Positions 1-13,649 of a stretch of 23,647 bases of DNA are shown piece after piece. Both the position numbers and the translations under genes were made by a program. How positions within the stretch are numbered: position 1 is the stretch's first letter; each line of letters opens with the position of its first letter. Under the pieces are notes generated by a model that worked only from the letters and a program-made list of their open reading frames with translations, ran no database searches and was not told where the DNA came from. Source of the stretch: a virus (taxonomy: Duplodnaviria; Heunggongvirae; Uroviricota; Caudoviricetes); IMG/VR virus record IMGVR_UViG_2537561691_000015; one strand, written 5' to 3'.

Positions 1-1002
1 TTACCCTCTATTGTCAAAAGGGTTTAATTCAACAGCAGCCTCTAAATGACCCGGAGCAAAATGCGCATAACGCATAGTCATTTTTATATCGCTATGCCCC
101 AGTATTTTTTGCAACACAAGAATATTTCCGCCCCGCATCATAAAATGACTAGCAAACGTGTGACGTAGCACATGAGTTAATTGCCCATCAGGGAGCTCTA
201 TCTTCGCTCTCTTAATTGCAGCGTCAAAAGCCTCATAACATGGTGAAAATAGCGCTCCTCGTTTTTTAGGAAGCATAGCCTGCAATTGAGGTGAAATCGG
301 TACAGTGCGGTTCTTCTTTCCTTTAGTTTTAACAAATGTGATTCGACCGGGCAGTACTTGAGATTGCTTTAATCCTTCTGCTTCACTCCACCGAGCACCA
401 GTCGCAAGCCCAATACGGACAACAACCCCCAAATCTTTATTCCGTGACTCATCACACGCAATCAAAAGGCGTTCAATCTCATCTACATACAGAAACGCCA
501 GCTCCTTTTCTTCCTCACGAAACTTGCGAATTCCAGTCAGGGGGTTTTCACCAGACCACTCCCCAAGGCGCTTCAGTTCGGCAAAAACAGCATGTAGATA
601 TGACTGCTCGCGATTAACGGTTGCTTCACTAAGTTTTTTCTTCCCCTTGGGATTCCATTCTCCTGATAGCCTTCTTTCCCGATAAGTAGCAAACATATTT
701 TTGTCAAACTGAGAAGCAAATGGATCTCCCAGCCTAGAACAAATCGCCTCAAGTTTGACTTTGCGCTCTGCACCAGAGGACAAGGTTTTGCCGTACATCT
801 CAAACCAACGAGCAATCAACTCAGAAAGACGAGGACCAGAACCATCTTGAAACTCGTCTCCAACTCTACTATTCATTAAACGGCGCTCATAAGAGAGCGC
901 CTCACTTTTTGTCGCAAACTGTTTACGAATGCGTTTTCCCGATGCTCCGTAGGGATAACATTCGCAAAGCCATTTACCTGATGGAATCTTACGAACCGAC
1001 AT
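1..1002 (-). CDS. int: Tyrosine integrase (P2 Int-like), complete, stop codon at window edge
   Basis: 333 aa ORF; C-terminal catalytic box 'LRHTFASHF...GHSDIKMTMRYAHF' typical of tyrosine recombinases; last gene of the repressor operon as in P2. Confidence 0.9.
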   Translation of the reverse strand: MSVRKIPSGKWLCECYPYGASGKRIRKQFATKSEALSYERRLMNSRVGDEFQDGSGPRLSELIARWFEMYGKTLSSGAERKVKLEAICSRLGDPFASQFDKNMFATYRERRLSGEWNPKGKKKLSEATVNREQSYLHAVFAELKRLGEWSGENPLTGIRKFREEEKELAFLYVDEIERLLIACDESRNKDLGVVVRIGLATGARWSEAEGLKQSQVLPGRITFVKTKGKKNRTVPISPQLQAMLPKKRGALFSPCYEAFDAAIKRAKIELPDGQLTHVLRHTFASHFMMRGGNILVLQKILGHSDIKMTMRYAHFAPGHLEAAVELNPFDNRG

Positions 1003-1007
1003 TTTTG

Positions 1008-1355
1008 TTACTTATCACATAAATCAAATGCAGCCTTAGTGACGTCCCCCAGATTCTTTTTTAACCCAGGGGCGGCATCATTATCTAGCCAAAATGGATT
1101 ATTGTTATCTAACGGTAACGCACCAAATGTTTTACCTTTTATTCGAGCCAAACCTGTAAGCGCATATAACTTATTATCGTCAAAATTCATCACATAAGGA
1201 TTACCATCAAGACACTGCAATTGAACCTCATCTGTATTAAATGGCCATACTCCATTGAAACTCTCACGTTCAATAGTTTTAAAAGGCATTGCGACGGCGG
1301 AAAAAGAAAACATAGATAAAAAAGCAACTAATAGTTGAACCTTTTTTACTTTCAT
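1008..1355 (-). CDS. Small secreted/periplasmic protein of unknown function (cargo in lysogenic operon)
   Basis: 115 aa; N-terminal signal peptide 'MKVKKVQLLVAFLSMFSFSAVA'; two Cys (possible disulfide); GAGG ribosome-binding site upstream; stop 5 nt before int start. Confidence 0.6.
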   Translation of the reverse strand: MKVKKVQLLVAFLSMFSFSAVAMPFKTIERESFNGVWPFNTDEVQLQCLDGNPYVMNFDDNKLYALTGLARIKGKTFGALPLDNNNPFWLDNDAAPGLKKNLGDVTKAAFDLCDK

Positions 1356-1384
1356 GTCATTGCCTCAATTTAGCTCAAGTAAGA

Positions 1385-2035
1385 TTACAAATTAAAAAAC
1401 ATCCTAGAAATGGCTCCGCCTACCAAAACCCCTACGCAGATAAAGAATATTATTTCTTTTGGATAAAATCGGATTAATTCTGAAGCACGAAGGCGGACTT
1501 CTGGTAAGGTCGAATTCTCTGTGTGGCTTGATACCGATTGTTGCTCTAACCACGACAATGCAGACTGTAACTGAGAACGAGTAAGATCGTTTAAACGTCC
1601 TGTACCGAAATTGATATGGCAATACCGCAGAAGTTTTTGTCGAAGTCCACAGTCTTCACTGTTACGTAATAATAAACTTACAAGAGTCTTACAGGCATCA
1701 TGATCTTTACATCGCTCAAGCATTGCATGCAGAAAACTCTCCGCTGTTTTATATTGATTTATTGTCATATCATCAATACCAGCTACACCAATCTCCGCAT
1801 GTACTTTTTGCCAAATAATAAACGCTTCAGTATTGCTAGCTTCTGCAATAGCAGCAACCAAGCTATTTAGCTCCTTACGCTGTGCCTTAAGCAAAGGGCG
1901 AGCGTCATCATCATTATTCGAAGGGATTGCGATATTGACGGTATGAGAACCATCATATCGCTCTATCTGAATATTCTTTTCGTGAAAATCACGCCCAGCA
2001 ACGCGATTGTTTGAACCGTTTGAGTTGACGGCCAT
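1385..2035 (-). CDS. Tail-anchored membrane protein of unknown function (cargo in lysogenic operon)
   Basis: 216 aa; single C-terminal hydrophobic helix 'IIFFICVGVLVGGAISRMFF'; strong RBS GGGAGGTGA before ATG; starts 15 nt after repressor stop; N-terminal motif 'NNRVAGRDFHE' echoes the repressor C-terminus. Confidence 0.6.
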   Translation of the reverse strand: MAVNSNGSNNRVAGRDFHEKNIQIERYDGSHTVNIAIPSNNDDDARPLLKAQRKELNSLVAAIAEASNTEAFIIWQKVHAEIGVAGIDDMTINQYKTAESFLHAMLERCKDHDACKTLVSLLLRNSEDCGLRQKLLRYCHINFGTGRLNDLTRSQLQSALSWLEQQSVSSHTENSTLPEVRLRASELIRFYPKEIIFFICVGVLVGGAISRMFFNL

Positions 2036-2050
2036 GTCACCTCCCTACTA

Positions 2051-2455
2051 TCACCTACCCTTAGTTTCGTTATAGTCACGACCAGCGATACGGTTATTAC
2101 CACCAGAAATATTTAACTCACGCCCTGATGGCTGAGTTTCCTTTTCACTGCCCGCACTTTTTAAAGCCCCGATCACCGCGTTTTTTACATCTAACGAAGC
2201 TGCTCGAAAGCGAGTAATCAACTCCTGCTCATCATCGTTATAAGTTTCAGGTGAGTGAATTCCCAACACAACATACTGAACATCAAGGCCAAAACGAGAC
2301 AGCGCTGCCAAATACGCAGCATCAGGAAAGCTATCTCCTTTCTCATATCTAAGCTGAGTTAGCTTTTTGACTCCACCAATTTCGCTCATAGCAACTTGAC
2401 TAAGCCCCAATCTTTCCCTTTCCTCACGCAACCGCTGACCAATATCATTTTTCAT
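2051..2455 (-). CDS. HTH XRE-family immunity repressor (P2 C / 186 CI functional analogue)
   Basis: 134 aa; N-terminal helix-turn-helix 'LREERERLGLSQVAMSEIGGVKKLTQLRYEKGDSFP'; divergent from the early operon; first gene of the repressor-int operon. Confidence 0.8.
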   Translation of the reverse strand: MKNDIGQRLREERERLGLSQVAMSEIGGVKKLTQLRYEKGDSFPDAAYLAALSRFGLDVQYVVLGIHSPETYNDDEQELITRFRAASLDVKNAVIGALKSAGSEKETQPSGRELNISGGNNRIAGRDYNETKGR

Positions 2456-2470
2456 ACAAAAACCTTGACA

Positions 2471-2488
2471 GGTATCTTTTTTGATACC
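2471..2488. promoter_or_regulatory. Putative operator: perfect 6-6-6 palindrome GGTATC-TTTTTT-GATACC in the repressor/early-operon switch region
   Basis: Seen directly in sequence; lies between a TTGACA hexamer (2465-2470) and the early-gene start; GATACC half-site recurs at 2549-2554. Confidence 0.4.
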
Positions 2489-2530
2489 AAAATGATTTCA
2501 CGAGCTATTAGATGATCACAATATACCACT

Positions 2531-2737
2531 ATGAAACAAGTTCTTCACGATACCAGATCACGCATTCCGCGTAACACCGCCACAGGTCCAAGACTGGCAC
2601 TTCGGCTGTCCCTCGAAGAGCGAGCCGTCATTGATGAAATGGCAGCTAAAGAACAACGCTCATCCTCTAACATGGCGCGCATGATCTTCCTTCGCGGCCT
2701 AGAGCTAACCCAGAAAGAACAAAACAAATCTTCCTGA
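2531..2737 (+). CDS. Small DNA-binding regulator, first gene of early operon (Cox/Apl position; possibly ribbon-helix-helix)
   Basis: 68 aa; position equivalent to P2 cox / 186 apl; segment 'LALRLSLEERAVIDEMAAK...MARMIFLRGLE' resembles RHH-type regulators; family assignment not verified. Confidence 0.5.
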   Translation: MKQVLHDTRSRIPRNTATGPRLALRLSLEERAVIDEMAAKEQRSSSNMARMIFLRGLELTQKEQNKSS

Positions 2738-2753
2738 TCAGGAGGCTAGTGGG

Positions 2754-2957
2754 ATGTCAGGTATAACCATCAATATCAATGTGAATGCCCCCTATGTATC
2801 CCTGCAGAAATATGCAGAGATAACAGGTATCCCTCTTAATACATGCAAAAAGATGTTGGCTGACGGTCGAATTATTATCCGCCCCAAACGTGCCAAAATG
2901 GAAAAGCCTGAAGTAAACCTTGTGGCGATGTTAAAAGACGCTTTGGCTAACAGCTAA
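2754..2957 (+). CDS. Putative excisionase/AlpA-like HTH DNA-binding protein
   Basis: 67 aa; 'YVSLQKYAEITGIPLNTCKKMLADGRI' resembles excisionase-type winged HTH; RBS CAGGAGG upstream. Confidence 0.5.
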   Translation: MSGITININVNAPYVSLQKYAEITGIPLNTCKKMLADGRIIIRPKRAKMEKPEVNLVAMLKDALANS

Positions 2958-2978
2958 AACAATGAACAGAGCATCATC

Positions 2979-3329
2979 ATGAAAAAACACGCTAATAATC
3001 CATACTCCAAATTTCGTAATGGCGTAGAACGCCATATACACCACGTCGCTACCAGTGCATCACGTAGTAACAATCGCTATAACCTGAACGAGACGCACGC
3101 AACACCAGATGGGCACGCTGTAAAACAAATCGGCGAACACACCTGGCTGATTGAGAAAGCTGGAATAGTGGTTCACAGATGCTCACGCAATCCGTTTACC
3201 GGAAACCGCATTTTTGCATTAAGCAACGGCGATAATCAGTTCGGGCAGGATTTTACATTGTACGAAGCACTGCGCACAGTCGATCGTTTGCTTCGCGGGC
3301 AAAGTTTTATTAAACAGGCTGATTTATAA
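2979..3329 (+). CDS. Hypothetical early-operon protein
   Basis: 116 aa ORF with ATG start, co-directional and tightly spaced in the early operon. Confidence 0.5.
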   Translation: MKKHANNPYSKFRNGVERHIHHVATSASRSNNRYNLNETHATPDGHAVKQIGEHTWLIEKAGIVVHRCSRNPFTGNRIFALSNGDNQFGQDFTLYEALRTVDRLLRGQSFIKQADL

Positions 3330-3339
3330 CAGGTGCTTT

Positions 3340-3618
3340 ATGACTAAAGACCATGCACAAGGTGTATTTATCCGCTTTATTGATTTTCGCGGTGAACTGT
3401 TATTACGCGCATCAGCTATTGACGGAGTAGTTCCATCTGAAAAAAATGCAGCTACCTACGTTTATCTGAACGGTACGCGCCTGACAGTAGAACTTCCGTA
3501 CCAGACCGTTCGCGAAATAATTAACGAAGCTGAAAAAGCTCGTCAGGTTAATGGCGATGAACCCTATATCGAAATTATCTGCATGGATTCAGAAGCTGAA
3601 ATTCAGAAAGCAGATTAA
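3340..3618 (+). CDS. Hypothetical early-operon protein
   Basis: 92 aa ORF, ATG start, RBS-like AGGTG upstream. Confidence 0.5.
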   Translation: MTKDHAQGVFIRFIDFRGELLLRASAIDGVVPSEKNAATYVYLNGTRLTVELPYQTVREIINEAEKARQVNGDEPYIEIICMDSEAEIQKAD

Positions 3619-3629
3619 AGGGCGTTGCG

Positions 3630-3872
3630 ATGGGCAAAGAATATAAGACTCTCATAAACAAAGCACTTGAGCGTTTTTATTTTCGCTTAAGTGCATCAGG
3701 TACTCATGCTGAACGTGCAGCCCGTGACTCATTAACCAGGGCAATCCGGAGTCTGTATGACGTGGCTTTTTACGCTGATGATCTGGATGCACTTAACGAA
3801 CTTTCCGAGCTGATCTGTGCCGCAGAATGCGGGGAGCATATTGAACCGTATAAGCTGGGGAATATTGCATGA
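3630..3872 (+). CDS. Hypothetical early-operon protein
   Basis: 80 aa ORF, ATG start 11 nt after the previous stop. Confidence 0.5.
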   Translation: MGKEYKTLINKALERFYFRLSASGTHAERAARDSLTRAIRSLYDVAFYADDLDALNELSELICAAECGEHIEPYKLGNIA

Positions 3873-3982
3873 GTATATTTATCTCATGGCTTGTTCTGAT
3901 TATTTCGGTGGTCTGCGCCATTGGGATTATGCGAATTATTCGTTCAGTAAAAAAGATTGACCGCTTTTTCACTGGCGAATAA
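3869..3982 (+). CDS. Small hydrophobic peptide (37 aa), possible small membrane protein
   Basis: ORF MSIFISWLVLIISVVCAIGIMRIIRSVKKIDRFFTGE read directly; start overlaps upstream stop (ATGA); below the length cut-off of the ORF track. Confidence 0.3.
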   Translation: MSIFISWLVLIISVVCAIGIMRIIRSVKKIDRFFTGE

Positions 3983-4069
3983 CAGCGCAAATAAAAACCC
4001 TAGGTTAAATAAGAAAATGTAAAAACAATCCGCATTCGCGGAGGTATTCGCACACGCCCAGGAGGTGTA

Positions 4070-4273
4070 ATGGCAATTAAGCATTTTCCTGTCGTTCGTT
4101 TCACTTCCAGAGGACGTGAATACGAAGTCGACGAACGCCTGATTACCACAATCGACAAACACCGCTCAGAAAAGGATGCACACCACATCTATCTCACTGA
4201 CGGTACTTACTTCTGCGCCACTAATGTGGTGCGGGTGAATCTTATCCGACAGGTACAGGATCCACGCAAATGA
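4070..4273 (+). CDS. Hypothetical early-operon protein
   Basis: 67 aa; strong RBS CAGGAGGTG before ATG. Confidence 0.5.
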   Translation: MAIKHFPVVRFTSRGREYEVDERLITTIDKHRSEKDAHHIYLTDGTYFCATNVVRVNLIRQVQDPRK

Positions 4274-4488
4274 GCAGGAGAAGAATCACTCGCAAACATC
4301 ACCGCACACACCTGAATTCCTCAGCAACGCTAAAGGCACTTATTAAAAGCGAGATCGGTGATTTCTTCGCGGGAGTTGGCTCGCCAGGTGAACCAGAAAC
4401 ACCAGAAGCGATACAGCGTGAGCTCATGATACGCATAGATAGCACTTTTGATTTCTTCTACAGCATGCACGGAATTAAACAGAAATGA
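4270..4488 (+). CDS. Hypothetical early-operon protein
   Basis: 72 aa; ATGA overlap with upstream stop (translational coupling). Confidence 0.45.
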   Translation: MSRRRITRKHHRTHLNSSATLKALIKSEIGDFFAGVGSPGEPETPEAIQRELMIRIDSTFDFFYSMHGIKQK

Positions 4489-4596
4489 ACCTCAAGCCAG
4501 CAATAACTACTCGTAGAACGCCAATTCCTGTAACCGACCGCTTCTGAGTTTTTTGGCAGGAAGCCTTCGCACATCCTTAGTAGAGAGAATTGCAGC

Positions 4597-4986
4597 ATGA
4601 TTGACGCTCATGACTTCACAAGATGGGTGCGCACACAGGACACCCGTCTGGCTCCCGTTCTTCAGGGATTATTTGATCTCTACATCCGTAGTCGTGACAA
4701 CAGAGCACGCACTACAAAACCGGAGAATGCAGACACCCTTTATTTCACAGTAGACGACTGCTACCGCGTGGACTTAACACCACACGGGCTGGCGTTGCGC
4801 TGCCTGACACCGCATGGCGAATCACTGCTGGCGTATTACGACTCCCCGACCTCCGTATTTGCGGCAATGCTGGCGCATCACACTGCTGGCGGGTGTGCCT
4901 CGCTGAGTGAATACACCGCTGAATTTAACCGCCTTTCCACCCTCTTCTCGCAGGAGTGGCAGCGCGTGACGGGATACCAGCCATGA
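4597..4986 (+). CDS. Hypothetical early-operon protein immediately upstream of the replication gene
   Basis: 129 aa; its stop overlaps the ATG of gene A (ATGA). Confidence 0.5.
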   Translation: MIDAHDFTRWVRTQDTRLAPVLQGLFDLYIRSRDNRARTTKPENADTLYFTVDDCYRVDLTPHGLALRCLTPHGESLLAYYDSPTSVFAAMLAHHTAGGCASLSEYTAEFNRLSTLFSQEWQRVTGYQP

Positions 4987-7748
4987 GTGAGTTTGCATGG
5001 AGCTGGAATGAACCACGGCCAGCCATTGATCCGGACAGATTTACGGAGCGCAGGCAGGAAACTGAAACCGAGCTGCAACGCGCCATCCGTTACTACCTTG
5101 AGGCGGACAAAAAGGCCCGTAAAGAACAGGAAGCGAAGGAGGAAGCCTTTTTCGCACAATCCACCGTGGGTAAAAAACTCATGGCATCCCTTGAGGAAGC
5201 CGGACAGCGTGAAAAGCTGGCACAAAGCATCATCAGCAAGCGTCAGGCAACAGAACAAGACCCGGTGGCCCGTGCTTTTGCCACACTGAAGGTGCTTCCC
5301 GTTTATCTGCGTGAACCTCTGAGCCGCCACCTCTCTTTCCTGCGCAAAAAACAGGAATCCGATCGTCAGAAAGGCAAAAAGAGCTGGCAGGCTGAACGCT
5401 ACGCGCGCGGAACCCTGCGCAAAATATTCGTACGTCTGGACCGCACCGACAGCCGTTGGCTGACACCGGGTTATCGGTCCCTTGCCGGACGTGAACGCCT
5501 GGACGATTTGCTTTACCTGCCGCAACTCAACAAACACCAGATACAGACGCTGGCCACCATGACGGCGGCGATGTTCAGCAGCACCTTCGAAAAACTCTGC
5601 GATGGTTTTGGCGCGACCGATGGCGAGCTGACCATGGATGTAACGCTGAAGGCGTATCAGATGCTGGCCCGCATGGCGTTACACTTGCACGCCATGCCTC
5701 CGCATTATGACGCACTGACAACAGACAAAGACCGGAGGAACGAACCGGACACAGAACTGCTGCCGGGCGCAATCCTTCGCCTGACCTGTGCGGAATGGTG
5801 GAAACGCAAACTGTGGCTGTTACGTTGCGAGTGGAGAGAAGAACAACTCCGCGCCGCCTGTCTGGTTTCCAGAAAAACATCGCCCTATTTGAGCCAGGAC
5901 GCGTTAAGCGAGTTTCGCGCACAGCGCGAGAAAACACGCGATTTCCTGAAAAGTTTCATGCTGGAAAACGAAGACGGGTTCACGATTGATCTCGAGACGG
6001 TGTATTACGCGGGAGTAAGTAACCCGGTTCACCGTAAGGCAGAAATGATGGCCACCATGAAGGGGCTGGAACTTCTGGCCGAAGCCCGTGGCGACAAAGC
6101 GGTGTTTCTGACTGTCACCTGCCCGTCAAAATACCACGCCACAACAGAGAACGGTCATCCGAATCCCAAATGGAACGGGGCCACCATGCGCGACTCCAGC
6201 GATTACCTGGTTAACACGTTTTTTGCGGCGGTCCGCAAAAAACTGAACCGCGACGGTCTTCGCTGGTATGGCATCCGCACGGTGGAGCCTCACCATGACG
6301 GCACCGTGCACTGGCATATGATGGTCTTTGCTCATCCGGAAGAAATCGACAGCATCGTGGCCATCACCCGCGATATTGCCATTCAGGAAGACCGCCACGA
6401 GCTGGGCAATGATATTACTCCGCGCTTTAAGGCGGAGTATGTCGACGGCTCAAAAGGCACACCAACCAGCTATATCGCGACCTACATCGGAAAGAACCTG
6501 GACAGCCGCGCCGTGGATGGCATCGACCCGAAAACGGGCAAGCCACGCGTTGACCACGAAACCGGAAAATCAATGGCCGAGAGTGTGGAGCGCGCCATCG
6601 GCTGGGCGCGCCTTCATCGGGTCCGCCAGTTCCAGTTCTTTGGCATCCCCTCCCGTCAGGTGTGGCGTGAACTGCGCCGCCTTGCCAGCCAGATGGCACG
6701 CAACCCGGAAGGCCCGCAACGACTGAAAGATGACGCAATGGATGCGGTACTCGCTGCCGCCGATGCCGGGTGTTTTGCCACCTACATTGAAAAACAGGGC
6801 GGCGTACTTGTTCCACGCAAAGACTACCTGATTCGCACCGCCTACGACCTCGCAGATGAGCTGAATGATTACGGCGAACAGAGCGTACAGATTTACGGGA
6901 TCTGGTCACCACTCATCGGGGAATCCTCCCGTGTGTGCACGCATCCGGATAACTGGAAACTGGTAAGACGTAAACCGGAAACGGAAGACAGCGCCCGCGA
7001 AAATGGTTTTGACCTTCAGGGCGGCCCTGCCGCCCCTTGGACTCGTGGCAATAACTGTCCCCGTGTACAGGAAACGGACAACAACGGGACAGAACAGCCG
7101 GAAGAACGGCCAGCACCGTGGCCGCGGCTTCCTGAAGGCGTTGACGTGAATGAATGGATGCGCTCACTGAAACGGCACGAACGCCGGGCACTGATGCGTT
7201 CGCTGCGTGACAAACAGGCAAAAAACAGCAGTGATGAAATGCAGAACTGGACACAGAGCCGCAAACAGCCACAGCCTTTGCCTGATAACCACGAGTTACT
7301 CGCTAAAGAATGGCGGGAGGCTGCTGAATCTCTCGGCCTGCATATCGGTGAACAGCAGATGCAGCACCTGTTACGAGGCGGCAGTCTGTACGTTGGCGGC
7401 AGCATCATTGCACCGCAGGGATTTGAAATTGTACGCAAACAGGATACCCGCCCGGACAGCCGAATCACGCAGCTCTGGCAACGCCTGAGTCGTAATCACG
7501 GCGTAAGCAGCACGGAGATCCGCCATAACCCGGTCGCCAGCTATCTGGAACAACTAGAGGCATCAGACCCTGAAGCCGCCGCACGCCTGGCATCCACACT
7601 TCAGCAAGACCAGAACACCATGAAAACACCCGTTACCGTACTTTCTGACATGCTGCGCGCCATCCGCGACGCAGAGCACGCACAGAGAATCAGTGAAACC
7701 ACTAAACATGCTCGCAAAAAAATCAGTTTATTGCATCGAACACGATAG
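4983..7748 (+). CDS. A: Rolling-circle replication initiation endonuclease (P2 gpA family)
   Basis: 921 aa from ATG 4983 (the track's 4956 start is GTG); HUH-type motif 'VEPHHDGTVHWHMMVF' closely matches my recollection of P2 A; last gene of early operon as in P2. Confidence 0.9.
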   Translation: MSEFAWSWNEPRPAIDPDRFTERRQETETELQRAIRYYLEADKKARKEQEAKEEAFFAQSTVGKKLMASLEEAGQREKLAQSIISKRQATEQDPVARAFATLKVLPVYLREPLSRHLSFLRKKQESDRQKGKKSWQAERYARGTLRKIFVRLDRTDSRWLTPGYRSLAGRERLDDLLYLPQLNKHQIQTLATMTAAMFSSTFEKLCDGFGATDGELTMDVTLKAYQMLARMALHLHAMPPHYDALTTDKDRRNEPDTELLPGAILRLTCAEWWKRKLWLLRCEWREEQLRAACLVSRKTSPYLSQDALSEFRAQREKTRDFLKSFMLENEDGFTIDLETVYYAGVSNPVHRKAEMMATMKGLELLAEARGDKAVFLTVTCPSKYHATTENGHPNPKWNGATMRDSSDYLVNTFFAAVRKKLNRDGLRWYGIRTVEPHHDGTVHWHMMVFAHPEEIDSIVAITRDIAIQEDRHELGNDITPRFKAEYVDGSKGTPTSYIATYIGKNLDSRAVDGIDPKTGKPRVDHETGKSMAESVERAIGWARLHRVRQFQFFGIPSRQVWRELRRLASQMARNPEGPQRLKDDAMDAVLAAADAGCFATYIEKQGGVLVPRKDYLIRTAYDLADELNDYGEQSVQIYGIWSPLIGESSRVCTHPDNWKLVRRKPETEDSARENGFDLQGGPAAPWTRGNNCPRVQETDNNGTEQPEERPAPWPRLPEGVDVNEWMRSLKRHERRALMRSLRDKQAKNSSDEMQNWTQSRKQPQPLPDNHELLAKEWREAAESLGLHIGEQQMQHLLRGGSLYVGGSIIAPQGFEIVRKQDTRPDSRITQLWQRLSRNHGVSSTEIRHNPVASYLEQLEASDPEAAARLASTLQQDQNTMKTPVTVLSDMLRAIRDAEHAQRISETTKHARKKISLLHRTR

Positions 7749-7793
7749 AAATATAGAGCTAAGGCCGCCCTAGGAATAAGGAGGCCTTGAAAA

Positions 7794-8603
7794 TCAACCT
7801 ATCTTCTTATGAAGTAAAATTAATTTCTGTATTAATTTGGAATGAAACATTGATATATCAGAAATTCTTATTTCATTAGGCGAGTCTATATGATTGGAAA
7901 CTTCTTCCTCCAAGGAGTCACAAATACTTTCTAGATTTTCAATATCTGCATTTAATTCTGGAAAACTATTAAACAAATATAATGAATCCCGTAACTCTCC
8001 TAGTTTTGGTAAAAGAGTATTACTGAATACACTAAGAAACTCCTCTTCTGATAATGCCATGGAGTTTTTAAAACTTTGCACAACATCGAATGCCAACCCA
8101 TTAATTTTAGGCATAATTACTTCTCTTACCCAATACCCTTCATTAATAGCTTCTTTACGTTCTTTTCTATGTTGAACACAAGGAATAACAAAGGATGAAA
8201 CTAAAGCAAATAAAGAGATGCCAATAGAAATCCACTCTGGACCATTTTCCGGAACCTTTACAATATTATATATATCATAGGAATTTGGAACATCTTTGAA
8301 ATAATTAGCAAATAAATCTTTTTTGTTATCCCTTGCCAGAGATAACTTATGAAAGGTGTCGTTTGCCTTTTCACAAAACATCAAGCCATCATTCGGGTTT
8401 CCGGATAACAAAAACGGTGATGATATACCACTAAGTCCTGAATCGGAAATATAAAAAGGCGTGTTTGGATAAAGTGATTCATTACATTCAATGTTTTCTT
8501 TATTGGAAAAATCTGTCACAGAGCAAGCTGCGGGGAATATAAAAAAAATGACAGACAGCGCTGTCATTTTGATTTGAAAAATATTTTTAAAAGAAGGGAA
8601 CAT
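7794..8603 (-). CDS. Membrane protein with N-terminal signal peptide and one internal transmembrane helix (third gene of cargo operon)
   Basis: 269 aa; N-terminal 'KNIFQIKMTALSVIFFIFPAACS' signal-like; TM 'WISIGISLFALVSSFVIPCV'; AAGGAG RBS; overlaps upstream gene by 17 nt; AT-rich codon usage. Confidence 0.6.
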   Translation of the reverse strand: MFPSFKNIFQIKMTALSVIFFIFPAACSVTDFSNKENIECNESLYPNTPFYISDSGLSGISSPFLLSGNPNDGLMFCEKANDTFHKLSLARDNKKDLFANYFKDVPNSYDIYNIVKVPENGPEWISIGISLFALVSSFVIPCVQHRKERKEAINEGYWVREVIMPKINGLAFDVVQSFKNSMALSEEEFLSVFSNTLLPKLGELRDSLYLFNSFPELNADIENLESICDSLEEEVSNHIDSPNEIRISDISMFHSKLIQKLILLHKKIG

Positions 8604-8931
8604 TTTTATGTAAGCCTCTCCTTACAGCTCTATCTAATTCAGAAAGCATACCTTCTTTATATTCACGACCATCAAGTACAGTGCGACTATAAAATTCGCT
8701 AGGCGAAGAAAATTTCGGCAAAACCGTTTCAAGCATACCTAGAAAGTATGAGCTTGATACAACAATTCCCTTGGGGATCAATAGATATAATCTATCATTA
8801 CTGGTTGTGCAAAATTTCCCTATATTAAAGTAATCATAGGCCTGGCGCCCATTAGAACGTCCAGCAAAAAGTTTCTTGTTACTATCTTTTACTAACTTAT
8901 TGAAATCTATGGTGATGTCAGCCATTTTCAT
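8587..8931 (-). CDS. Small STAS-like (anti-sigma-antagonist / DUF4325-like) protein, second gene of cargo operon
   Basis: 114 aa; 'IDF...GIVVSSSYFLGMLETVL' resembles the SpoIIAA/STAS phospho-serine region; starts 10 nt after gene-1 stop with a GAGGA RBS; family call from memory only. Confidence 0.55.
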   Translation of the reverse strand: MKMADITIDFNKLVKDSNKKLFAGRSNGRQAYDYFNIGKFCTTSNDRLYLLIPKGIVVSSSYFLGMLETVLPKFSSPSEFYSRTVLDGREYKEGMLSELDRAVRRGLHKNVPFF

Positions 8932-8941
8932 GTACCTGTCC

Positions 8942-10321
8942 TCAAGTTCGCTGGGTGGCGTTTTCTGGTAGAGGAAAACGAATATTGATCATAACTCCAG
9001 GAAATCGAGCATCCTTCATACGCTTAAGATAGTTGCGATCCGGTTCAGATTCAAGCCCTACATCATTAAAAGGGTAAGTAAAAATGTCACTTTCCTCGTC
9101 ATTAACCAACCTTTGCTTTAATTTATATGATCCATCAAAGTTAATATGAGTACTACCAGATATTAAAGTCATTTTTATCCCACCTTTAATATCTCTTCCC
9201 ATTTTTTTAAGATTATCATGCATATCTTGAAATAACTTCAATAATTCAATTGTTCCGGTGCCAGAACTGTCAGTTTCTTTCTCGTTTTTACAACTCACCC
9301 GCCCTTGCAAGGCCGCTACTGTTGTTAATCCTTCCTTAAACATACCCTTTTTCTTAATATGCTTATTTATGTATGGATTAACTTGTTGACTTAATGAAAA
9401 ATGATCCTCAGGTAAATTATCAAAAGTTTCGCTGATAGTTTTCCCAAAATTGAAAACAGCCAACTCACATATGGGGTTTCGTACGTTATTATTAACAAAA
9501 CCTCTCAAATACCAGCGTGGGCGTTGCTCTAACCCACAATGCCGCTCCGCATTATCAAGGAGTTCCCCCATGCAGGAAGTTAAATGCTTTTCTGCCTCAT
9601 GTACAAGTTTTAAATTATGATCATTTAAGCATTCGTTTATGTATGCGGTAAATTTTTCAGCAGTGACATTTTTTCTGTCATGGGCAAAGGCAGAAGCATT
9701 CTCCTTTCCGATACTATCAGCAGAGAAGATTCGTTTCTTCGGATTCGCTTTTTTCGATGCTTCAGTAGAGTCCAGAACTTTACCTGGTGCAGCATTACTA
9801 ATCTCTTTTACAAGCCCGACATCCCTGATAATTTCAAGATACTGTTCATCTTTAGGGTAGATACCATTAATCTGAATCATCGTATCTTTGAAATTTATAT
9901 TACTTTGCCTTGCTGCTGTAAGAGCAACACCTAATAGACACTCAAGACCAAGACAGTGTTTTTTGTTTTTCTTGTAATCAAAAATATATGATTTCCATTT
10001 ACCTCTTGCAATTAATTTTGTGGCTGCACTAATAAATAGCAGAGATTTCTCTGGATTGTCATATAAGTCAAAATATTTAGGTATTAATATCTTCTCTGCG
10101 TCACGACGAAGAATTGATGAGTCATACTCTTTTATAATCGATATATTTTCAATGAACGTAGCGACTTGGTTTTGGACAGGAGTTGTTTCATCGGAAAAAC
10201 GAAGACTACCATTTTTCTCTTGCGCAGGCTTTTTTTTCTTAGCTCTCTCAACGCTACGAAGAAATCGCAACCATCCACGTAAAAAGGTTCTTTTAGAATC
10301 TTCTTTATTGATTTTTTTCAT
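8942..10321 (-). CDS. GHKL/HATPase_c-like ATPase-domain protein (SpoIIAB/RsbW-type N-box), first gene of cargo operon
   Basis: 459 aa from ATG 10321 (the track's 10417 start is TTG and lies inside phased repeats); N-box-like 'GELLDNAERH' (E-x3-N-A-x2-H) and G2-like 'DSSGTGTIELL' in the C-terminal half; N-terminal ~230 aa basic region of unknown function; AT-rich. Confidence 0.6.
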   Translation of the reverse strand: MKKINKEDSKRTFLRGWLRFLRSVERAKKKKPAQEKNGSLRFSDETTPVQNQVATFIENISIIKEYDSSILRRDAEKILIPKYFDLYDNPEKSLLFISAATKLIARGKWKSYIFDYKKNKKHCLGLECLLGVALTAARQSNINFKDTMIQINGIYPKDEQYLEIIRDVGLVKEISNAAPGKVLDSTEASKKANPKKRIFSADSIGKENASAFAHDRKNVTAEKFTAYINECLNDHNLKLVHEAEKHLTSCMGELLDNAERHCGLEQRPRWYLRGFVNNNVRNPICELAVFNFGKTISETFDNLPEDHFSLSQQVNPYINKHIKKKGMFKEGLTTVAALQGRVSCKNEKETDSSGTGTIELLKLFQDMHDNLKKMGRDIKGGIKMTLISGSTHINFDGSYKLKQRLVNDEESDIFTYPFNDVGLESEPDRNYLKRMKDARFPGVMINIRFPLPENATQRT

Positions 10322-10400
10322 TTCCAAATGTTCCTGCAAAGTTAACGTAGCCCACAAGGCGCTAAGTATACTTTCTGCTATATTTTTTTCACTATACAAA

Positions 10401-10427
10401 TGCACAATAGTGCACAAATTTGCACAA
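10401..10427. promoter_or_regulatory. Three helically phased direct repeats TGCACAA (starts 10401, 10411, 10421) upstream of the cargo operon; candidate operator/activator site
   Basis: Seen directly; exact 10-bp periodicity; on the operon strand they read TTGTGCA and sit just upstream of -10-like TATAGT and TATACT hexamers. Confidence 0.4.
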
Positions 10428-10801
10428 TTTTTTTGAACGACTTTTTGCCCTTCCGGCCCGCATGGTGGCTGGATCCGTCAAGGATCCGTGCGTGCACAAA
10501 AAAACGCATTTTTTCTGCGCGCAGGTGACGGGGGAACAGCCCGCGTTTCAGGGGGTAAATAGCATCCCCTGAACGATGTCGCAGCGACACAACAGAATGG
10601 CTGTATTTCTCACGCTGAGCGTGAAAAAGACGTGAGGGCTTTTGATTTGATGGGGTGAAAGGTAAGGCCGTCAAAATCGCACTGAGACGGCGAGAACATG
10701 CAGTCAACGCGGTGGGATTGCGTAAGAGTCTGACTGTCGATGATGGCAATCAGCAGGAAAGCGTCGTGAAATTATCTGACTGATACAGGAGCTGGAGAGT
10801 C

Positions 10802-10851: not shown

Positions 10852-11898
10852 TCAGGATGTGGGCTGGGTGTCTAACAGTGCGTAAGGGTTAAAGCGGATC
10901 ACCTCTTCGCCAAGCCAGTCATTGATGTGCTTCATGGCCTCCATGACGGGCATCAGCTCGTTAATTGCGTAAACCCGCGCGGCCTTCTCCACATCACCAA
11001 ACGCACTTTTTTCGCCCGGCATCGCCCCCATCAGTTGCGGCGGAACGCGGTGCGCAGCCAGCACATCATCACGGGATGCCGCCTTAACATTCATGAACTC
11101 ATCTTTTGCGGTGATCTGCTGGAACGGCAAAATTTGCACCCCTTCTTTGCCCCCGTTGGGCGCATGAATGAGCACGTTTTTAAATGCACCACCACCACGC
11201 GCACCCTGTAACGTTTCTTTCAGGGAGTCCATGCTTTCGCGGTTTACCTGCGCTGCACCGATGTAGATGATGCACCCGGCGTGGGATCCGTTGTCGTAGT
11301 ACAGTTTTCTGAACATGTCCGCCGAATGAGAAAGGCTGGCCGAGAGTAATGCGCCAAGATATTCCGGCATGCCGTAGATTTCCTGGTTAATATCCGGATT
11401 CATCAGGTGGCACACTTTGCCAGGGCGAAACTGGAACGCGTCCTTGCCATCCTGCACATACCACCATGATTCAAGATCGCTTCCGCGTCGCATGTATTTC
11501 GCCAGGGCGTGCCGTAATTTAAGCGGTTCGCCGAGCATATTGCTCCGAAGCTCAAGGAATGCGTTACCGAACACAAACCAGTCCAGCGCCAGCGCCGAGA
11601 AATCCTGCCGGGAAAGCAGCGGGTGCGGGATGTAGCAACCGAGTAATACATTGCGCTTAAAGTAAAGCGCAGACTGATGCCAGGACGTTTGCCGGGCGGC
11701 TCTTGCCAGACCGTACCAGTCCACCGGGGTTTCATACCACCGCCCGTTATCAGCACAGTACATATTGTCCAGCAGGTCATGCCCGGTCAGGCGATAAGGA
11801 CCATCAAATGTGAATGCACTGAGCGATGATTCTTTCCTGAGCGCATCAGCGAGATCAATGCGTGAACTCATGCGCACTTTTTTATTTTTTCTGCTCAT
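10852..11898 (-). CDS. Q: Portal protein (P2 gpQ-like)
   Basis: 348 aa (P2 Q about 344 aa as I recall); start overlaps P stop (ATGA); canonical position next to large terminase. Confidence 0.9.
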   Translation of the reverse strand: MSRKNKKVRMSSRIDLADALRKESSLSAFTFDGPYRLTGHDLLDNMYCADNGRWYETPVDWYGLARAARQTSWHQSALYFKRNVLLGCYIPHPLLSRQDFSALALDWFVFGNAFLELRSNMLGEPLKLRHALAKYMRRGSDLESWWYVQDGKDAFQFRPGKVCHLMNPDINQEIYGMPEYLGALLSASLSHSADMFRKLYYDNGSHAGCIIYIGAAQVNRESMDSLKETLQGARGGGAFKNVLIHAPNGGKEGVQILPFQQITAKDEFMNVKAASRDDVLAAHRVPPQLMGAMPGEKSAFGDVEKAARVYAINELMPVMEAMKHINDWLGEEVIRFNPYALLDTQPTS

Positions 11899-13649
11899 CA
11901 GAACTCCATAACCGTGAAACGCTCGTTTTCTCCTTCGCCGCCAATTGGTTCGTTAATGACAGCAAGCATGGTTGCCCACGCAAGGTCGCCGTGGCTGATC
12001 CCCCTCGCGCGGTCCGTTTCGTAAGTGATAAAGCCGCCCGGTGTTTTCACCTTACGCACGGCGTTAAAGGCCGCGACCAGCTCGCGTTCGGCGCGATCGT
12101 ATTCCCACCGCCCTGCACGCATTATTTGCAGCATTTTCAGTACCAGCGACCGTTTTGATGACAGCGTGAAGGTGTACGGAATAGCGGCAGGGAAAAACCG
12201 TTTCACTATCTGATAAACAGCCTCCCCGTTCCCGCCCGTCACATCAATGCCGATGTGTTCCACGTTGTAGTGACACGTGAACTCTTCAATGACTCTGGCC
12301 TGTTCTTCAAACTCCAGCCCCTGAACGCGTCGCGTCTCCACCGTTCGAAAACGGCCACCAGGAACAGCCGGAGGAACCACCACGGACACAGCGCCGCTGT
12401 CGCCGTTGCCACTGCTGCCGTTTGCGTCATACCCAATCCATACCGGGCGATTCCCCATCGGGCGGGGAGCAAAAGGTTTCCAGTCTTTCCAGTCGTCGTA
12501 TCCGTCAACACCACAGCCAATCAGGATATTCAGGTTAAATGCCGATTCCCCTTCGCGGACAAACTCACACATATAGAGATTGAGGAACTCGTCTTCGGTG
12601 TTTTCATCACGAATTTCATCAATATCGGTGTGTTTCCAGCCGTGATTAACCACATCTTCCAGCGTGACAATTTGCCGCCACGTCCGGTCAGGGCAGATAA
12701 GCCCGTTATGCAGCGTTTTCCAGTCCACAGAAAAACGCTGGCGTTTATGCGTGGCCTTTTTCTCGTTCCAGCGGTCGCCGTTCCAGTAGGCGTATGCCTC
12801 GTGCGTTTCGGTGGATGGCGTGGAGAAGTAGGTGCGCCGCAGTCCGCTGAGGGTTGCCATAGCGCCAGCCACCTTGCGCAGTTCAGCAAAGCGACTGACC
12901 CAGAAGAATTCATCAAAATAAAAATTGCCCGTATAGGACTGTGCCGACGCAGCAGAAGTGCCGAGAAAATGCAGCTCTGCGCCGTTGGAGAGGATGATTT
13001 TATCGCCCCCTTTCAGCTCCACATCAACTTCAGCCGCGGCCTTCTGAATAATGCTTTTAAACTGGAACGCCTGACGACGCGACGCAGACAAAAAAATCTG
13101 GTTACGCTGATAAGGTTGCACCACATCGTCACGCAGCGCCATCAGCAGTGCTTCCTGTGCAAAATACCAGGTCGCCCCAATCTGTCGGGATTTCAGGATC
13201 ATCCTGTTACGTATCCCGGCTTCCCTGCAAAGGGTCAGGGAGTCAAACCAGCCCCGCTGATGCCACTCCAGCCTGCTGATGATTTTTTCCCGCAGTGCGG
13301 CAATCTGTTCCGGCGTGAAATGATTTTTGAGTTTTTTCGCCCGGCCTTTCTTTCCTGCGGCCATCACATCCGGCTGGCCATCATGCAGCTTTTTAAGCTG
13401 CCGTGTCAGCAGGTCTATTTCCTTGAAGTCACCGCCTGTTTTATTCTGTTTTTCAGTAAGCTGGATGAGGCGCGCATCAATGGATTGCGTGACACGCTGC
13501 ACGGGTGGCGTTTCATCCCACTGGTCGCGTTTTTTCCACGCATAAATCGTGTTCGGGTTTATTCCCATCAGACGTGATATTTCTGCGGGCGGATAACCCT
13601 GCCAGTAAAGTTGTCGCGCACGCTGGCGCACAAAAGCGTCCTGAATCAT
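11898..13649 (-). CDS. P: Terminase large (ATPase) subunit (P2 gpP-like)
   Basis: 583 aa; GGGGGAG RBS; divergent from the O operon exactly as in P2. Confidence 0.9.
   Translation of the reverse strand: MIQDAFVRQRARQLYWQGYPPAEISRLMGINPNTIYAWKKRDQWDETPPVQRVTQSIDARLIQLTEKQNKTGGDFKEIDLLTRQLKKLHDGQPDVMAAGKKGRAKKLKNHFTPEQIAALREKIISRLEWHQRGWFDSLTLCREAGIRNRMILKSRQIGATWYFAQEALLMALRDDVVQPYQRNQIFLSASRRQAFQFKSIIQKAAAEVDVELKGGDKIILSNGAELHFLGTSAASAQSYTGNFYFDEFFWVSRFAELRKVAGAMATLSGLRRTYFSTPSTETHEAYAYWNGDRWNEKKATHKRQRFSVDWKTLHNGLICPDRTWRQIVTLEDVVNHGWKHTDIDEIRDENTEDEFLNLYMCEFVREGESAFNLNILIGCGVDGYDDWKDWKPFAPRPMGNRPVWIGYDANGSSGNGDSGAVSVVVPPAVPGGRFRTVETRRVQGLEFEEQARVIEEFTCHYNVEHIGIDVTGGNGEAVYQIVKRFFPAAIPYTFTLSSKRSLVLKMLQIMRAGRWEYDRAERELVAAFNAVRKVKTPGGFITYETDRARGISHGDLAWATMLAVINEPIGGEGENERFTVMEF

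Follow-up and report, generated by a model that had tools for sequence, protein, structure and literature searches.

[quoted passage not shown] In the VapKSC operon, which protects against phage Bas42, VapS is the antitoxin of the PIN toxin VapC, and a phosphomimetic VapS frees the toxin; the trigger of both CapK and VapK is single-stranded DNA (PMC13373217). Within the collection of papers searched, no other one links STAS, GHKL and phage defence. The locus described here is a cassette of three genes, called K, S and M in the order of transcription (genes 1, 2 and 3), found in a stretch of viral DNA of 23,647 nucleotides (the window), a P2-like prophage. By analogy with VapKSC, the cassette is plausibly a phospho-switch of the same kind, in which a membrane effector replaces the PIN toxin; this reading is held slightly better than even (about 0.55).

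Genomic context and distribution of the cassette

The cassette and the surrounding phage genes are located as in Table 1. Judged by the genes at its borders, the interval between replication gene A and the portal gene corresponds to the P2 cos-proximal hotspot, described as a reservoir of anti-phage systems (Rousset et al. 2022, PMC9122126).

Table 1. Position of the cassette, of its signals and of the flanking phage genes in the window
Feature	Position	Strand	Remarks
Integrase	1..1002	-	
HTH repressor-like gene	2051..2455	-	
Replication gene A (gpA)	4956..7748	+	Pfam Phage_GPA
Low-GC island holding the cassette	7750..10400		32-39% GC versus 53-60% GC in the backbone; from composition
Gene 3 (M)	7794..8603	-	269 aa, WP_001548207; putative effector
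Hairpin, 10 bp perfect, then eight U	8537..8570	-	just past the gene 2 stop, within the gene 3 signal-peptide codons
Gene 2/gene 3 overlap	8587..8603	-	17 nt, gene 3 start inside gene 2 end
Gene 2 (S)	8587..8931	-	114 aa from ATG at 8931, or 112 aa from ATG at 8925 (WP_000763711)
Ser59-Ser60-Ser61 codons	8757..8749	-	candidate phospho-acceptor, N-terminus of predicted helix 60-67
Gene 1/gene 2 junction	8932..8947	-	TGA 8944..8942, GAGGA Shine-Dalgarno overlapping the stop, 10-nt spacer; sequence read directly
Gene 1 (K)	8942..10321	-	459 aa, WP_000723541, RefSeq ATG start at 10321
Asn291 codon of gene 1	9449..9451	-	in place of the G1 Asp
HCLG, gene 1 residues 121-124	9952..9963	-	start of helix alpha-2 of the STAS domain
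Sigma-70-like promoter match	10365..10392	-	~44 nt upstream of the gene 1 start; consensus scan
Portal gene (gpQ side)	10852..11898	-	Pfam Phage_portal
Large terminase	11898..13649	-	

The cassette has been catalogued before. Rousset et al. 2022 (PMC9122126) list it in their Table S5B as P2 hotspot system 19, under the label 'HATPase_c | DUF4325', and count it 155 times in E. coli. Proteins 1 and 2 of this system are identical to those of the window as far as they are quoted in the table, while protein 3, for which a signal peptide and 1 TM are noted, differs at two residues. System 19 is a catalogue entry only, and no mechanism is proposed for it. Three sequence motifs searched for are found in the catalogue table alone and are missing where that paper tabulates the systems it cloned and tested, which gives no sign of the cassette having been among them (PMC9122126). 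The domain labels were hence already known, but not a function or a mechanism. Identity of the cassette with Rst_3HP ('hp + hp + hp'), a system validated by Rousset et al. 2022 which likewise consists of three hypothetical proteins in the P2 hotspot, was considered and rejected, as the protein sequences are unrelated.

The full cassette occurs at near identity in 23 of 5,426 complete E. coli genomes, where each of the genes carries the annotation of a hypothetical protein. All three genes are found in the same order in 17 of the 18 IMG/VR loci encoding a gene 2 relative, and the K-S-M order is the same in each prophage or mobile-element locus examined. The cassette is not confined to P2 hotspots: a Morganella prophage and a Serratia-type element carry it too, and another contig has it beside a tail gene. 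In locus L014, a P2-like prophage of Rahnella type, the gene for a large KAP-family NTPase (1..2784) adjoins the cassette in the same hotspot. The cassette region of the window (7700..10800) is 100% identical to the corresponding region of E. coli WS1933D (NZ_CP035836.1), whose annotation was used for this region alone. The early regions of the two prophages differ, that of WS1933D being ~2.3 kb longer than the one in the window (about 1..4600), and including a SPFH-domain gene. Since the cassettes are identical and the early regions are not, the same cargo resides in non-identical P2-like backbones.

Residence in the hotspot does not by itself denote defence, and the cassette may be seen as an addiction/maintenance or stress-response module of the prophage. 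Many hotspot cargos, such as partition systems and toxins, have functions other than defence, and three of eight additional P2 hotspot systems tested were active (PMC9122126). Yet, the nearest relative, VapKSC, protects against phage Bas42 (PMC13373217), a KAP NTPase gene sits next to the cassette at the same hotspot position in the Rahnella-type locus, and the cassette moves among different mobile elements. A role unrelated to defence is regarded as very improbable.

The gene 2 product

The 114-aa ORF singled out by the original prediction was confirmed on the minus strand as a conserved gene, and its reported start 10 nt past the gene 1 stop codon was borne out. Homologues of the protein fall into 41 clusters (42-99% identity), mostly from Enterobacterales and Aeromonas. 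The dN/dS ratio is 0.05-0.10 against five homologues, dS being saturated for two other, more distant ones. Gene 2 is a conserved coding gene under purifying selection, and a chance ORF is excluded. The start is uncertain by two residues, because Met3, where PGAP/RefSeq sets the start of an identical copy two codons later (WP_000763711), is invariant across the family.

Invariant features of the family are KLFAGRxNG, the SSSY..G.L motif (Ser59-Ser60-Ser61, Tyr62 and Gly65) and a C-terminal E..RA..R. The serine triplet, which is part of the segment GIVVSSSYFLGML (residues 55-67), is invariant among 37 aligned homologues; Ser61 and Gly65, conserved in at least 90% of the sequences, are the top-conserved residues in the alignment of a 121-member superfamily. 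In the AF2 model (pLDDT 89.8) a helix is predicted to begin at residue 60. Matched to solved STAS structures, the model gave no significant hit.

Assignment to a family required intermediates. Scanned directly against Pfam, the gene 2 protein does not match DUF4325 even at E up to 1, and direct scans of all three cassette proteins against Pfam, NCBIfam and PADLOC returned nothing usable. The superfamily was collected with a profile of the gene 2 family, which was run against 1.84 billion representative proteins and retrieved 121 of them with E values of 1e-3 or lower; 13 of the 121 match DUF4325 (PF14213, 'STAS-like'). The single-domain proteins P0208, P0219 and P0236 (107-111 aa) exceed the Pfam gathering score, and do so over the very region aligned by the profile. 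P0208 supports the assignment independently of the profile. It is the middle product (107 aa) of a metagenomic cassette located beside a Phage_GPA gene. The first product of that cassette (434 aa) is clearly orthologous to the gene 1 product (E 3.7e-97), the third (294 aa) is a homologue of the gene 3 product (E 1.9e-8), and the second and third genes share the same 17-nt overlap found in the window. Because P0208 sits in an orthologous K-S-M cassette, the middle gene is recognisably DUF4325 in a distant variant.

VapS, the sequence of which was taken with that of VapK from the supplementary model file of PMC13373217, is a strong DUF4325 member (Pfam, E 2.7e-17), and its Ser48 aligns with Ser60 of the gene 2 product when the alignment is made through intermediates. 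Compared by hhalign with VapS alone, the gene 2 family alignment gave no significant score (E 0.098). The comparison with a small DUF4325 alignment gave a probability of 97.6%, a figure which is partly circular because the members of that alignment were picked from the matches of the gene 2 family itself. Among PDB sequences the sole match of the gene 2 profile was the anti-sigma antagonist TM1081, at a non-significant E of 0.42; this sub-threshold alignment places Ser61, which precedes the conserved Gly by four residues, at the canonical phospho-Ser position. The serine-rich stretch thus lies where antagonists carry their phosphorylatable serine, as had been proposed, Ser60 corresponding to VapS Ser48 and Ser61 to the TM1081 site. 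The STAS-like label of the original prediction fared less evenly: homology to DUF4325 holds at the profile level, but neither a direct Pfam match nor a significant match to solved STAS structures was obtained. On the basis of these alignments, the gene 2 product is classified as a divergent DUF4325/VapS-like, 'STAS-like' protein. An attempt to query Pfam with remote homologues concatenated by Gly-Ser linkers was dropped, as the linkers gave rise to spurious Serglycin matches and to summed scores.

The S domain occurs in a variety of arrangements. In P0128 (169 aa) the S domain comes after an initial fragment similar to the GHKL lid region, and in P0195 (362 aa) a bona fide DUF4325 domain precedes a second S-like region; two S-like stretches are present in P0160. 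The phrog_5816 family shows weak similarity to VapK in the middle and to VapS at the C-terminal end.

A tblastn search with gene 2 found no match in 50,697 deposited phage genomes. A lone 106-aa homologue, 42% identical and retaining the Ser triplet, was detected in an AT-rich jumbo-phage lineage (28-29% GC), at 4007..4327 in L038 (IMGVR_UViG_3300011202_000010, 341.6 kb) and at 5148..5468 in L005, two contigs ~90% identical to each other. Neither a kinase nor a membrane partner is encoded in the fetched flanks of this gene. The lone S homologue could be a decoy, or an antitoxin mimic directed against K-S-M type systems.

The gene 1 product, a putative kinase

The mechanical ORF of gene 1 reaches a TTG codon at 10417 (491 aa), upstream of the RefSeq start. 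A promoter-like sequence is found before the gene (Table 1), in a region in which the count of such matches is not above the shuffled expectation. The protein is predicted to consist of a basic N-terminal helix (~1-60), a STAS-fold domain (~65-205) and a SpoIIAB-like GHKL kinase/ATPase domain (~215-459). Its best structural match is the anti-sigma factor SpoIIAB, and it resembles RsbW as well. It matches phrog_3364 over the whole 304-position profile (E 2.4e-7), and the same family is matched by VapK (E 3.6e-38); the hhalign comparison of the gene 1 product with the single VapK sequence was not significant, and a profile search against PDB sequences gave nothing. K is predicted to be a STAS domain fused to a SpoIIAB-like GHKL domain, and is related to VapK.

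The STAS domain of K carries the residues HCLG at the site where SpoIIAA-type proteins have the phospho-Ser, and VapK has HCRF there. No aromatic residue is found at the HCLG site, which in VapK hosts Phe54, the proposed ssDNA-contacting residue. The comparison is at the level of motifs, given the non-significant hhalign score of the two proteins.

The nucleotide-binding pocket is unusual. The N box (E253, N257, H261), which includes the Mg-binding Asn, and the glycines of the G2 box (G354, G356) are invariant among 53 homologues. The G1 box reads NFG rather than DxG in 53 of 53, and SLG in the distant orthologue encoded by L018, so the Asp that contacts adenine in GHKL enzymes is missing, replaced by Asn291 or, in L018, by Ser. 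To judge from the sequence of the pocket, the predicted kinase may use nucleotides differently, or may have lost catalysis. K may accordingly be imagined as a nucleotide-binding scaffold or pseudokinase, with S binding K or M in unphosphorylated form and the Ser triplet playing a structural role. The invariant replacement of the G1 Asp fits such a view, as does the lack of a Pfam HATPase_c match, though HATPase_c is the label given in the catalogue entry for system 19 (Rousset et al. 2022, PMC9122126). Preservation of the N and G2 boxes, and of a Ser triplet located at the phospho-acceptor position of S, argues for an active kinase instead, and a catalytically dead K appears quite improbable.

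The gene 3 product and the gene junctions

Gene 3 has no match in Pfam (to PIN or any other domain), NCBIfam or PHROG. In PADLOC, genes 1 and 2 have no match, and gene 3 has only one at E 0.031, to PDC-S02. The protein starts with a signal peptide carrying a lipobox-type, nearly invariant Cys27, and has one transmembrane helix (~124-146) followed by a conserved cytoplasmic C-terminal domain of ~115 aa. These features make M a bitopic membrane protein, the signal peptide of which is of the lipoprotein type. The periplasmic segment varies strongly among homologues, whereas the TM helix and the cytoplasmic domain are conserved; the latter includes INEGYW.REVIMPKIN, ELRDS and an invariant Cys-Asp pair.

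Prophage lipoproteins which block phage entry exist. M could similarly be an envelope sensor or a superinfection-exclusion lipoprotein rather than a toxin, its periplasmic segment meeting the phage or the receptor, and K-S regulating M or relaying its signal. The lipobox-type signal peptide, and the variability of the periplasmic segment over a conserved TM helix and cytoplasmic domain, speak for this role. It leaves the cassette without a separate effector, however; moreover, it is the cytoplasmic domain that is most conserved in M, and variability in the periplasm may reflect weak constraint. The sensor or exclusion role is considered decidedly unlikely.

The three genes are tightly packed. 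Genes 1 and 2 are separated by -20 to +12 nt across cassette variants, a spacing compatible with translational coupling. The overlap between genes 2 and 3 measures 17 nt in 11 of 11 variants (the window, L002, L006, L009, L010, L012 and L014-L018), and is kept even in the distant L018 cassette, in which the gene 2 protein is distantly related to that of the window. The link between genes 2 and 3, being invariant in length, is tighter than that between genes 1 and 2.

A hairpin (arms AAAAUGACAG and CUGUCAUUUU; z-score -3.17) follows the gene 2 stop. It is 100% paired in seven loci, in which the gene 3 proteins are 42-60% identical and the flanking sequence is variable. A single compensatory substitution (A-U to G-C) was noted in L014, and a single wobble change in L017; covariation is statistically weak, 77 of 500 shuffles reaching the observed score. 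No such hairpin exists in L002, L006 and L009, cassettes that are more distant. It may be an attenuator or terminator acting between genes 2 and 3, and lowering gene 3 expression.

The order of interactions could be that of classical SpoIIAB/SpoIIAA modules. According to this scheme, K would keep its output protein, be it the cytoplasmic domain of M or something else, inactive; S in its unphosphorylated state would displace this target, and phosphorylation of S by K would reset the switch. The likeness of K to SpoIIAB and RsbW lends some credit to the scheme, as does the fact that S-type proteins antagonise such kinases in classical systems (PMC13373217). Unlike in a classical anti-sigma partner-switching module, however, neither a PP2C phosphatase nor a sigma factor is found in the cassette or its flanks. 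The gene 2/gene 3 overlap, being invariant, points to S and M as the pair, not to K and M, and in the closest characterised system it is the toxin that S binds (PMC13373217). The classical topology is hence deemed unlikely.

Proposed mechanism

The association of the three genes, their family assignments and the conservation of their motifs are established results. From the analogy with VapKSC we infer that S binds M and is phosphorylated, that M is toxic, and that the cassette responds to a trigger and acts against phages. In uninfected cells S would be bound to the conserved cytoplasmic domain of M, and M would be held inactive. The invariant 17-nt overlap, and possibly attenuation at the hairpin, would keep the level of S at or above that of M. 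Infection or DNA damage would activate K, and activated K would phosphorylate S at Ser60 or Ser61. Phosphorylated S would release M, which would then damage or block the inner membrane, and infection would be aborted. A phospho-switch partnered by the ATPase was already envisaged in the original prediction, which is supported in part: its family, partner and logic have held, while the fold match and the phosphorylation are still putative; gene 3, and the STAS domain of K itself, had been overlooked.

A fuller version of the VapKSC-like switch may be tentatively drawn, and is clearly more doubtful than the switch as such. The cassette would be an abortive-infection system, in which a kinase with an unusual pocket (Asn for the G1 Asp) phosphorylates the VapS-like S and sets free an effector, a bitopic lipoprotein, at the inner membrane; the fast-evolving periplasmic segment might sense the envelope, and the lone S of jumbo phages could serve as a decoy antitoxin.

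The cassette goes unrecognised by current defence-finding databases. If the VapKSC-like switch is confirmed, a function would be provided for a cargo that ranks nineteenth by frequency in the E. coli P2 hotspot, with its 155 occurrences, and the notion of the kinase/STAS sensor pair as a reusable module of bacterial immunity would be supported. The cassette would represent a new variant of a recently described type of system, an experimental lead more than a surprise. Experiments could start from the 17-nt overlap with its invariant length, from the hairpin, and from the kinase pocket with its Asn.

Comparison with known systems

VapKSC and the cassette are both three-gene operons with equal gene order, in which the third gene is, or would be, the output. 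In each, the gene for a STAS+GHKL kinase (predicted as such for gene 1) directly precedes that for a DUF4325-type STAS protein of ~115 aa, in which a conserved Ser sits where a helix begins, and both operons reside on mobile elements or near defence genes. Differences are manifest as well. VapKSC has been characterised experimentally (PMC13373217), whereas the cassette is known here from sequence and predictions alone, and direct sequence similarity of its proteins to VapS and VapK is below significance. K is longer than VapK (459 versus 302 aa), having an extra basic N-terminal helix and insertions; unlike VapK, it carries Asn for the G1 Asp, and the ssDNA-binding aromatic residue (F54 in VapK, W68 in CapK) has no obvious counterpart in it. 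The third protein of VapKSC is the PIN-domain nuclease VapC, that of the cassette a lipoprotein-type bitopic membrane protein.

CapK-CapS shares with the cassette a STAS+GHKL kinase encoded immediately upstream of its STAS substrate, and the association with immune loci. CapS, however, is a repressor with a winged helix-turn-helix domain, whereas the gene 2 product lacks a DNA-binding domain; CapK begins with an HTH, and a separate immune operon lies downstream of CapK-CapS, where the cassette has only gene 3. If the reading preferred here is confirmed, switches made of a GHKL kinase and a STAS protein would control a membrane effector, besides transcription, as in CapKS, and a PIN nuclease, as in VapKSC.
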